From a virus: 64,000 nt of DNA. The position numbers and the translations under genes were made by a program. Every line of letters starts with the position of its first letter. The first letter of the stretch is position 1. The DNA is taken from positions 2,440 through 66,439 of IMG/VR virus record IMGVR_UViG_3300031885_000010. The stretch is one strand, 5' to 3'. Shown in pieces: positions 30-1,604 of the stretch. Under the pieces are notes generated by a model. The model made no database searches. It had not been told where the DNA came from and was given only the letters and a program-made list of their open reading frames with translations.

Positions 30-115
30 AAATAACGAAAAGGGTGAGACGGCGAGCACCCACCCCGATCTTTAGTAGCGGGACATTGACGCTCGTCTCC
101 ACCCGATGGTTATGA
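30..115 (+). repeat. attC-like site 1
   Basis: AAATAAC-GAAAA-GGGTGAGAC...GTCTCCACCC-GATG-GTTATGA; inner arms pair with one extra base. Confidence 0.8.
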
Positions 116-129
116 GAAAGGAGATCATT

Positions 130-294
130 ATGAAACATTTTTTTCAAGAACCAGAAAAATCTTTTTTCCAAAATGATGAAATAGGATGGATTGCTAAGCC
201 TGGCCGTGAATATTGGGCCGAAGAAGGACAAGTTTCAAATCATTGTTGGATATATGAGCATTCAAATCAATGCCCTTGTCGAAAAAAAGTTTAA
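130..294 (+). CDS. Cassette protein A, hypothetical (54 aa)
   Basis: AAGGAG RBS then ATG at 130; stop just before next R'' box. Confidence 0.6.
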   Translation: MKHFFQEPEKSFFQNDEIGWIAKPGREYWAEEGQVSNHCWIYEHSNQCPCRKKV

Positions 295-297
295 TCC

Positions 298-385
298 AAA
301 TAACGCTCCGGCTCACTTGGCCGGCAAGGAGGAAACATGAAATCTAAAAGAGCTATTCCGGCTCAAGTGCAGTCGGTTGTTAGCG
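298..385 (+). repeat. attC-like site 2 (contains RBS+ATG)
   Basis: AAATAAC-GCTCC-GGCTCACTTG...CAAGTGCAGTC-GGTT-GTTAGCG. Confidence 0.8.
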
Positions 386-531
386 AAAAAGACCTTATTA
401 TTTCATATATAAAAGGACTCCTTGACAATGGATTCTTTCTTGTTTTAACTCCTACTCAGTACAGATTGTGTCCCAAAGAATTAAAGGGGCATCCAAATCT
501 TAAAGTAAATAAACTCTTACCATTACGCTAA
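337..531 (+). CDS. Cassette protein B, hypothetical; starts inside attC 2
   Basis: AAGGAGG 326-332, ATG 337; stop TAA lies in R'' box CGCTAAC. Confidence 0.6.
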   Translation: MKSKRAIPAQVQSVVSEKDLIISYIKGLLDNGFFLVLTPTQYRLCPKELKGHPNLKVNKLLPLR

Positions 532-618
532 CGACTGAACTCAGCGGCGGCGAAAGGAGTTGATATGCTAAACAGAGACGAAGAAGTTGAAAGGATTTTC
601 TTGAGTGATTTGTTAGAC
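526..618 (+). repeat. attC-like site 3 (degenerate arms, contains RBS+ATG)
   Basis: CGCTAAC-GACTG-AACTCAG...TTGAGTGATTT-GTTAGAC. Confidence 0.68.
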
Positions 619-753
619 GGAGGATTTATGTTATTTTACTCTTTTATTTGGCAAGCTCAAACTTCAACAGAAGGTGTCTATATTTTTTATAGAAATAAAT
701 GCGAAGTTATTGGGCACAAAGAAATTTGTTGGGATCTTTGTTACTCCGTCTAA
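565..753 (+). CDS. Cassette protein C, hypothetical (YopX-C-terminus-like 'CEVIG' motif); starts inside attC 3
   Basis: AAGGAG 554-559, ATG 565; stop TAA in R'' box GTCTAAT. Confidence 0.55.
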   Translation: MLNRDEEVERIFLSDLLDGGFMLFYSFIWQAQTSTEGVYIFYRNKCEVIGHKEICWDLCYSV

Positions 754-803
754 TGATTGAACTCAGCGGGCCATTGACACTCGCCTCGAACCGCTGGTTA
801 TAC
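748..803 (+). repeat. attC-like site 4 (apparently chimeric)
   Basis: GTCTAAT-GATTG-AACTCAGCGG...CGCCTCGAACCGCTG-GTTATAC. Confidence 0.7.
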
Positions 804-818
804 AGAATGGAGGAATCA

Positions 819-1022
819 ATGACAGTACAAGAGTTTGAGGAGAAAATTCAATCTATCCGTGCTAAAAATGGTTGGCGTATAGTTTTAGATTGTTCAGGAA
901 TTTGGGAAATTAGAGTATACGATAAAGAGACAGACAAACTTCTTGCAAGGACTGGAGGATCAGGCATTGAACCAGTTCCTGAAATACTCGAAATGCCGTT
1001 TGATAAATGCCCTTGGGTTTAG
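819..1022 (+). CDS. Cassette protein D, hypothetical (67 aa)
   Basis: GGAGG RBS, ATG 819 (MTVQEFEEK). Confidence 0.7.
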   Translation: MTVQEFEEKIQSIRAKNGWRIVLDCSGIWEIRVYDKETDKLLARTGGSGIEPVPEILEMPFDKCPWV

Positions 1023-1025
1023 ACT

Positions 1026-1080
1026 GTATAACGTAGAAATCAGCGGCGTTTTGAACGTCCGCTGGAATGATTGGTTATGC
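1026..1080 (+). repeat. attC-like site 5
   Basis: GTATAAC-GTAGA-AATCAGCGGCGTT-TTG-AACGTCCGCTGGAATGATTG-GTTATGC. Confidence 0.82.
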
Positions 1081-1099
1081 CTTTGGAGGAAATAAGAAT

Positions 1100-1276
1100 A
1101 TGATTGTTGAAACGGTGAAAATGAAATTAGTGGATAAAACAATACCAATAAATTTACAGGTTGGTCAAACTATAAATGTTTTTTGCGAAGAAATAGAAGG
1201 TGAAGTTAAAATGACTGTGATTAGGTTATATAAAGATGGGAGTTTTGATGGAGAGGTAATTTGGGAGGAGGCATAA
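1100..1276 (+). CDS. Cassette protein E, hypothetical (58 aa)
   Basis: GGAGG RBS; stop TAA in R'' box GCATAAC. Confidence 0.65.
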   Translation: MIVETVKMKLVDKTIPINLQVGQTINVFCEEIEGEVKMTVIRLYKDGSFDGEVIWEEA

Positions 1277-1324
1277 CGTCAAGGGTGAGGCGTGTTAAAC
1301 ATTGCCTCCACCCGCTGGTTATCT
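1271..1324 (+). repeat. attC-like site 6
   Basis: GCATAAC-GTCAA-GGGTGAGGC-GTGTTAAACATT-GCCTCCACCC-GCTG-GTTATCT. Confidence 0.85.
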
Positions 1325-1333
1325 GGAGGACGT

Positions 1334-1567
1334 ATGAGTTTTCTAATAGAAAAACGTTCATTCTGGTTTTCCGAGAAACAAAAAAAGGAACGTATGCAAC
1401 AAGGGCTTGGAGTTATAATTTGCGTTCTTGAAAATGGAAGACAACATGAAGTTACGGAAGCCGTCAATATCGGAAAGAAGCCGATAGGGTCTTGGGATGA
1501 TTATAAGTTTGTAGGAAATGAATATCATACTAAATATATTCCATATGACCCAATTTATTTCAGATAA
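1334..1567 (+). CDS. Cassette protein F, hypothetical (77 aa)
   Basis: GGAGG RBS, ATG 1334; stop TAA in CAGATAAC. Confidence 0.7.
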   Translation: MSFLIEKRSFWFSEKQKKERMQQGLGVIICVLENGRQHEVTEAVNIGKKPIGSWDDYKFVGNEYHTKYIPYDPIYFR

Positions 1568-1604
1568 CCACTGATTAACAAGCCATTTTGCCCTGATAAT
1601 GGTA

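Follow-up and report, generated by a model that had tools for sequence, protein, structure and literature searches.

A probable cluster of attC sites without integrase, with bottom-strand-coded cassettes, in a tailed phage from sediment

Phages have already been found to carry attC sites. The text of Qi et al. (2023, Front Microbiol, PMC9892861) describes 17 clusters of attC sites lacking integron-integrases (CALINs), that is, at least two nearby attC sites with no integron-integrase close by, among 10,705 phage genomes, and reports that IntI1 recombined five of the six attC sites tested, which came from three virulent phages. The phage CALIN is thus a kind of element already published (PMC9892861). 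The locus described here lies in a stretch of 64,000 nucleotides (the window), bases 2440-66439 of the 66,439-bp viral contig IMGVR_UViG_3300031885_000010, which comes from sediment. At the left end of this window, from position 30 to 1568 and probably as far as about 1753, sits what we consider quite probably to be a further CALIN, with six cassettes coded on the bottom strand of their attC sites and recombined by an IntI integrase provided in trans.

The array resembles the CALINs in the text of Qi et al. in its attC sites with small open reading frames (ORFs), in its setting in a tailed phage without intI, and in the core of one site class (class I), which is also present in GenBank MW202573, a phage CALIN listed by these authors (PMC9892861). 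Unlike that account, whose text leaves undiscussed the polarity of genes relative to the attC strands, the present locus has ORFs that would lie on the bottom strand, and two of its sites hold a ribosome-binding site (RBS) and a start codon. The frequency differs as well, one site class alone being present in at least 119 IMG/VR contigs.

Bacterial sedentary chromosomal integrons offer a second comparison: they share with the array the site architecture, the sequence class of one site (S5, below) and a complementarity of boxes that is specific to each cassette, but their arrays lie beside intI and attI with ORFs on the top strand, whereas the phage array has no intI match and ORFs that would be on the bottom strand. 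The promoter-early stem-loop (PeSL) cassettes of T4-type phages are promoter-plus-terminator modules that flank small early genes and recombine by homology, and a role in shuffling genes by way of circles has been suggested for them. Here, too, small early genes in plastic phage regions are bordered by recurring stem-loops, but with AAC and GTT boxes, bulged bases, cassette-specific flanks and no promoter consensus. Among bacterial cassettes, those in reverse orientation, for example with toxin-antitoxin genes, make up a minority. The phage cassettes are like these in having an ORF antisense to the canonical direction and independent of the Pc promoter, and differ from them in that all six cassettes of the window are of that kind. 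Cassettes of this reversed kind, equipped with promoters of their own, are mentioned for chromosomal integrons in the texts of PMC5027507 and PMC9892861. Our literature search met no account of phage cassettes with inverted polarity, a subject on which supplementary tables could bear, nor any of attC sites bearing the translation start of their own cassette, of how abundant such arrays are in uncultured phages or of phage CALINs on a large scale.

The array, its flank complementarity and its sites

The contig, estimated by CheckV to be 85% complete, was identified as a tailed phage by its terminase large subunit (E 2e-94), together with a head-tail adaptor and a helicase. Six + strand ORFs of 54-77 amino acids, each with a Shine-Dalgarno sequence, stand at the left end of the window in what would be a + strand block of early genes, and between them lie attC-type sites that begin with nnnnAAC and end with GTTnnnn. 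The resulting cassettes, A to F, each carry a single gene and measure 222-291 nt. Four to seven sites are thus found within 1.7 kb, and the whole 66,439-bp contig has no TIGR02249 or PF00589 match, as befits a CALIN and not a complete integron, in which intI would be expected with attI and Pc adjacent to it. A first-pass annotation, made by a model from the letters of the window, had likewise seen no integrase there, and the result extends to the 2.4 kb upstream. It had also supposed that the array might continue upstream of base 1, which is not the case: those 2.4 kb are tightly packed with genes and contain no attC-type site, either by the covariance model R1 (described below) or by a structural scan, and no partner was found upstream for the left box of the first site. 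As neither a site nor a partner box precedes it, the array begins at window position 30.

The footprint of a circular intermediate is seen in five of the six cassettes, where the box that opens the cassette complements the box that closes it. All the pairs that the first-pass annotation had quoted are present: 379/526 over 7 nt, 612/744 over 10 of 11, 797/1024 over 9, 1074/1269 over 9 and 1318/1561 over 8. It was also right that in cassette A the complementarity is short, only GTTAT being matched. When the boxes are compared in a six by seven matrix, the pairs belonging to cassettes A to F have 2, 4, 8, 6, 6 and 5 complementary bases past the 3-nt core (the 8 of cassette C being accompanied by one mismatch in the core), while every other pair has one to three. 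As background, 23 of the 3841 pairs of GTT and AAC lying 100-400 nt apart in the window reach at least four, and four of these 23 are cassette pairs. The flank signature is far above chance.

The same signature recurs beyond the window. For flanks and polarity, the statistics were drawn from 139 viral and 63 bacterial class I-like sites, all of them distinct. A partner box with at least five complementary bases past the core turned up in 121 of 203 viral tests and in 25 of 88 bacterial ones, compared with 19 of 203 and 2 of 88 when the control direction was tested. Two viral contigs reached through ORF B, L006 and L007, hold the same four classes of site, including adjoining class I sites; their flank complementarity goes up to 14 and 13 nt, respectively, and the core itself covaries in L006 (GTTC with GAAC, and GTTG with CAAC). 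A cassette of about 140 nt in L006 (2640-2783), bounded by 14-nt perfectly complementary boxes with the GTTC/GAAC core, carries no ORF.

Structurally, the six sites that the first-pass annotation had placed between the six ORFs fall into two groups, four of them folding as attC should and two being degenerate. Sites S1, S2, S5 and S6 fold better than shuffled sequences, with z of -2.7, -2.7, -3.7 and -1.6. In these four, the left spacer has 3-8 nt and the right one 2-9 nt, where an attC hairpin with its R and L boxes would have an unpaired central spacer of about 5-6 nt. The first of them, S1 (30..115, + strand, class II), has its left box AAATAAC at 30-36 and its right box GTTATGA at 109-115; it folds with -15.5 kcal/mol into a 13-bp helix whose 3′ arm has two bulged bases, C99 and T93, and whose 5′ arm has no bulge. 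Class IV is represented by S2 (298..385, +), with C370 and T363 bulged on the 3′ arm, 6 bp apart, and S6 (1271..1324, +), another class II site, has C1308 and T1302 on the same arm. Both outer-helix bulges (in the first 13 bp or more) are therefore on the 3′ arm in S1, S2 and S6, spaced by 5, 6 and 5 bp, with T distal; S2 has one further, deep bulged C on the 5′ arm. The class I site S5 (1026..1080, +) shows the canonical bottom-strand form, with a 3′ arm reading CG-T-CCGCTG-G, of which the fold itself displays only the T; the G at 6 bp is placed by alignment to R1, where two of three outer pairs are mismatched.

The other two are degenerate. Site S3 (526..618, +) shows no sign of folding (z 0.07). 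Its left half belongs to class I, with 96% identity to the bacterial sites L161 and L177 of that class, whereas the right half retains only G-AGT, the spacer and GTTAG, its interior having been replaced by the RBS and start of ORF C; this half is similar to a site at 4722-4802 of L007. Site S4 (748..803, +; z -0.56) joins a left half of class I/III, with GTCTAAT as its box, to a right half of class II, which, compared by eye with the right half of S1, agrees at about 24 of 31 positions. AAC terminates six of the seven left boxes, the exception being the AAT of S4, and all six right boxes, as well as a putative seventh at 1747, start with GTT. Chimeric sites made of halves of different classes were seen at window 748-803 and in L021, L027, L107 and L263, which suggests deletions or recombination within sites.

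Because an initial generic structural scan was too permissive (22 and 18 hits, mainly branched folds within genes), a stricter one was used. It gave seven + strand hits in the 66-kb contig, among them S1, S2, S5 and S6 within 1.3 kb; ten shuffled genomes gave one to seven hits apiece.

Hairpins between early genes could of course have nothing to do with recombination, and might act only as terminators, RNase III sites or promoter stem-loops. They do stand between every early gene and would be transcribed, -35-like hexamers occur in the loops of S1, S4, S5 and S6, 16-17 nt ahead of GTTAT, and RBSs are found in S2 and S3. A consensus scan, however, found no promoter at any site, and the only terminator-like call under a site is a 5-bp stem at 308-324 in S2, on the - strand; scan counts equal those of shuffles (8 against 6.8, and 2 against 1.9), and an Rfam search of window 1-4500 returned nothing relevant. 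The loop hexamers were accordingly dropped as promoters, the scan having no signal at the sites. Purely regulatory hairpins would also leave unexplained the cassette-specific complementary boxes with cores that covary in L006, as well as the identity with sites that lie beside bacterial intI, and this explanation seems to us very improbable.

That identity is best seen in S5. Its core is present in at least 119 IMG/VR loci, nearly all of them flanked by nnnTAAC and GTTRRRY, and in at least 120 loci of GTDB genomes, where 51 of the 124 matches listed have AAC and GTT flanks and the others look like chance hits in G+C-rich genes. IntI scores above the NCBIfam cut-off in four of the five site-bearing bacterial genomes checked (5 of the 51 loci). 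The 51 bacterial sites, all of one sequence class, were aligned to build R1, which is more sensitive than nhmmer (281 hits against 163) and was run on 100 of the viral loci. It recognises S5 with 57.4 bits (E 7e-15) on the + strand against 20.6 bits on the - strand. The first-pass annotation had proposed a test of the array with an attC covariance model; of the other sites, S6 receives a marginal 13.8 bits (E 0.26) from R1 and S1-S4 are missed. As R1 represents a single class, a miss is no evidence against the other sites. Site S2 is 95% identical to a stretch of L007 over 83 nt, and the class IV site recurs in 17 metagenome contigs (L255-L271), joined to at least 12 unrelated ORF bodies, with the peptide ..IPAQVQPVV fixed. 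Several of these 17 contigs have a divergent gene upstream of the site. A motif from the class II right arm, searched in IMG/VR, gave only three matches, by chance and inside coding DNA, and an 11-nt motif of the window is no more frequent than in shuffles.

Polarity and the cassette unit

According to the text of Nivina 2016 (PMC5027507), the extrahelical bases opposite the bottom-strand AAC are a G, a 6-bp stem and then a T, and the integrase cleaves within AAC. In the phage array, the AAC box is on the 5′ arm of the + strand and the bulges (distal T, proximal G or C, 5-6 bp apart) on the 3′ arm. Two bacterial integrons, each with IntI above the NCBIfam cut-off, provide an independent bearing: R1 hits (E up to 0.01) begin beside intI and are on the strand that encodes it, 13 of them ending 440 bp before intI in L253 and nine starting 360 bp after it in L254. 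From the position of the bulges and the strand of R1 beside intI, the coding (+) strand of the phage array is predicted to be the bottom strand of attC. The left box would then be R′, the crossover would fall between AA and C, and a cassette would consist of a site and the ORF downstream of it. The first-pass annotation had the strand labels the other way round; it called the NNNTAAC box R″ and looked for breakpoints between G and TT, and this has to be replaced. A standard cassette has a promoterless top-strand ORF upstream of its attC; here the ORFs would be on the bottom strand and downstream.

Read in this manner, each cassette would run C, hairpin, GTTxxxx, RBS, ORF, xxxxTAA, with the site upstream of its own gene. 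The genes would run opposite to those of bacterial cassettes and be read by early transcription of the phage instead of the Pc promoter. Cassette A (36-303) holds ORF A (130..294, +; 54 aa) with its RBS. Cassette B (304-531) holds ORF B (337..531, +; 64 aa), whose RBS and ATG are in the loop of S2, the 3′ arm of which codes for ..IPAQVQSVV. Next are cassette C (532-753) with ORF C (565..753, +; 62 aa), cassette D (754-1031) with ORF D (819..1022, +; 67 aa; flank match 6), cassette E (1032-1276) with ORF E (1100..1276, +; 58 aa) and cassette F (1277-1567) with ORF F (1334..1567, +; 77 aa; flank match 5). In four of the six cassettes the ORF (B, C, E and F) terminates in the TAA of the next box, which for ORF F is the last one. 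Every ORF obtains a complete unit, and the array closes with a lone left box. In two cassettes, the RBS, the start codon and the opening 15-19 codons are all part of the site (S2 or S3).

None of the ORFs A-F, all of which were queried, has a match in Pfam or PHROG. ORF E can nevertheless be compared with a homologue in L006: window 1026-1278 aligns with L006 1178-1431 (68% over 259 nt), the next downstream sites being of different class, and 34 of 58 amino acids are identical, with mismatches of 18, 11 and 32 (of 58 each) at the three codon positions. This pattern points to a real + strand gene under purifying selection. An ESM Atlas lead for ORF F, to a DNA-ligase OB-like family, has a score of only 0.86 and is no more than a lead.

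The polarity was then counted over the wider set. An RBS with a start codon lies just downstream and on the strand of the site in 87 of 103 viral cases against 4 of 51 bacterial ones, and upstream on the opposite strand in 5 of 103 against 12 of 51. Among cassettes with complementary flanks of at least 8 nt, class I sites being oriented as bottom strand, the longest ORF is on the strand of the site in 55 of 87 viral cassettes and in none of 19 bacterial cassettes, on the opposite strand in 18 of 87 and 17 of 19, and undecided in 14 of 87 and 2 of 19; such calls by ORF length are noisy in G+C-rich loci, which bears on the undecided cassettes and on the 18 viral ones assigned to the opposite strand. 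Annotated genes flanking the site in MW202573 share its strand. Inverted polarity appears general in the viral contigs, and it is absent in the bacterial set.

The right end of the array is less clear. After the last left box (AGATAAC, 1562-1568), an element at 1565-1600 sits at a position like that of attI yet resembles the left half of another site; it recurs at array ends in five viral contigs (twice in L107, and in L048, L027, L087 and L007), and a search of IMG/VR with the array-end pattern gave only two exact hits. A right half, CTTGAACGATTTGTTATGT, lies at 1735-1753, within an ORF at 1709-1912. Together, the two suggest a seventh site, S7 (1562..1753, +), long and degenerate, which is probably the anchor of the array, perhaps a resident one, although this is uncertain; no closing box for it was found downstream. 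An identical stretch of 15-16 nt (RBS and ATG) occurs at 553-568 and 1697-1712, before ORF C and before ORF 1709-1912, and the two proteins have in common an L(S/N)DLL motif coded by an attC right arm.

The recombinase and the movement of cassettes

Excision and insertion of the cassettes, in circular form, would be the work of an IntI-type integrase with the folded + strand as its substrate. The proteins of the contig, including those encoded in the 2.4 kb upstream of the window, were searched with PF00589, TIGR02249, PF00239 and PF01797, and no tyrosine recombinase, serine recombinase or Y1 transposase was matched. Similarly, among the 50 longest of about 119 viral loci with class I sites, a tyrosine-recombinase match (E 1e-5 or better) exists in four records and in none of the other 46. 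Of the 14 records with a completeness of 90% or more, 12 lack such a match, as do all six with direct terminal repeats; in four of these six, R1 has two to seven hits within the part covered. IntI itself exceeds its cut-off in one of the 50 (L085/L247, IMG/VR G037; 474 bits), which is flagged as a provirus and may be a bacterial integron beside a prophage.

As the recombinase families searched were not found in the phage, the integrase would come from a trans source, most likely a host integron, which is the simplest source and the only candidate left. The first-pass annotation had left the choice between such an IntI and a recombinase of the phage; the former stays as the candidate, and the latter is not seen in the families searched. 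One could still imagine that the cassettes are moved by a phage-encoded recombinase of an unrecognised family, different from IntI: 46 of the 50 viral records, the six with direct terminal repeats included, lack a tyrosine-recombinase match, and the inverted polarity of the genes sets the phage arrays apart. Yet the sites belong to the same sequence class as those of IntI-bearing integrons and have the bulge layout specific to IntI, no candidate enzyme turned up in the four families, and IntI1 did recombine phage attC sites in the experiments reported in the text of Qi et al. (five of six, PMC9892861). We regard such an enzyme as extremely unlikely, and host IntI acting in trans as the favoured source.

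Is the array still active? The first-pass annotation had proposed to look in relatives for changes of cassette order with breakpoints in the boxes between G and TT. A contig of run X2 (depth 27, side of 35, three shared bases TAA) joins position 3189 of our contig (L005) to position 4004. At this joint, the end of ORF C is fused to the last box between TAA and C, so that exactly three cassettes, D-F, are skipped, while another X2 contig retains them; this may be a change with a breakpoint in a box, at TAA and C instead of G and TT. It is a hint, not a proof, of recombination at the predicted crossover. Other candidates were set aside: loose ends at box edges (L005 2471, 2739, 3475, 3518 and 4004) are mostly other copies of conserved sites, and the joints from 2993 to 3495 and from 3007 to 4169 lie off the boxes, with sides of only 21 and 26. 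Stretches left uncovered in X3 and X4 carry no information. Between phages with shared sites, the cassette content is almost wholly different.

A relic would be another way to account for the array: an integrase would have assembled the cassettes long ago, the hairpins would now be inert spacers or translation-start modules, and later changes would be due to homologous or illegitimate recombination. The degenerate or chimeric state of S3 and S4, the chimeric sites in L021, L027, L107 and L263, and the lack of an integrase match in the contig and in 12 of the 14 most complete site-bearing viral records all fit such a history. So does a change outside the array, at L005 1636-2092 (contig coordinates, upstream of the window), where a YopX-like ORF (phrog_98) is swapped for 29 other bases in X2 and X3 contigs; this indel is unrelated to the attC sites and tells of other mechanisms at work. 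Four sites, on the other hand, still show every element of the bottom-strand architecture, their bulges being separated by 5-6 bp, flank complementarity is intact in relatives (up to 14 nt, and partner boxes in well over half of the viral tests), phages that share sites differ almost totally in cassettes, and the X2 variant breaks at the predicted crossover. For these reasons we hold a relic to be rather unlikely. That this is an integron-type array in a phage, whose cassettes existed at some time as circles, as the first-pass annotation had taken to be established, is supported by the flank signature, the R1 score of S5, the sites beside intI, MW202573 and the X2 joint.

Several observations weigh against a CALIN served in trans, and should be kept together. 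Cassette A has no flank signature, and S3 and S4 fold no better than shuffles. The proximal bulged base is C in S1, S2 and S6, not the usual G, which occurs only in S5. Only S5, out of six or seven sites, passes R1, a model biased to one class. Since class I sites look alike wherever they occur, the link between ORF E and the site upstream of it is weak evidence. Support for the X2 joint comes from a single short contig match, with a 35-nt side and 85% likeness, and no integrase was found in the contig, which is 85% complete. Finally, a PurA/PurZ-like gene makes a modified adenine possible, and this could hinder cleavage at AAC. The gene in question, at window 54409-55623 (+), encodes a 404-aa protein that matches phrog_1211, annotated as a PurZ-type synthetase (E 4.6e-50), and falls short of both relevant NCBIfam cut-offs, with 99 of the 396 bits required for PurA and 39 of the 300 bits required for PurZ; 2-aminoadenine DNA in this phage may or may not exist.

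Closer to the array, an HNH-type endonuclease (phrog_2340, E 1.6e-23) is encoded at window 2423-2821 (+), about 0.7 kb past its end. Searches for related loci with the upstream 240-aa protein, ORF F and a 63-aa upstream ORF brought no relatives, and a blastn search of 50,697 phage records, with window 1-2400 and S5 as queries, had no match.

What the array would mean for phages and their hosts

Beyond this one locus, we tentatively put forward, as a possibility that we rate below even chances, that environmental tailed phages keep a mirror pool of cassettes, with IntI-type sites, genes on the bottom strand, attC as a 5′ leader and an IntI borrowed from the host. Phage cassettes, read by early transcription, would then be silent once captured by a bacterial integron, and vice versa. 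With the bottom strand as the non-template strand, folding during transcription could be favoured. The attC sites that hold an RBS, a start codon and a fixed N-terminal peptide would be natural recombination sites embedded in coding sequence.

If this is true, the 17 CALINs reported in 10,705 isolates would greatly understate how common they are among phages in nature, and hundreds of small orphan early genes of phages would gain a defined mobile unit with clean boundaries. Phages without an integrase would swap early genes by means of the IntI of the infected host, plausibly genes for counter-defence, although an anti-defence function of the cassette genes is at present speculation. Bacterial integron cassettes store anti-phage defence genes, as two accounts put it (10.1101/2024.07.02.601686; 10.1101/2024.07.02.601719). 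Integron recombination would in that case be a channel of gene exchange shared by both sides in the arms race between phages and their hosts.

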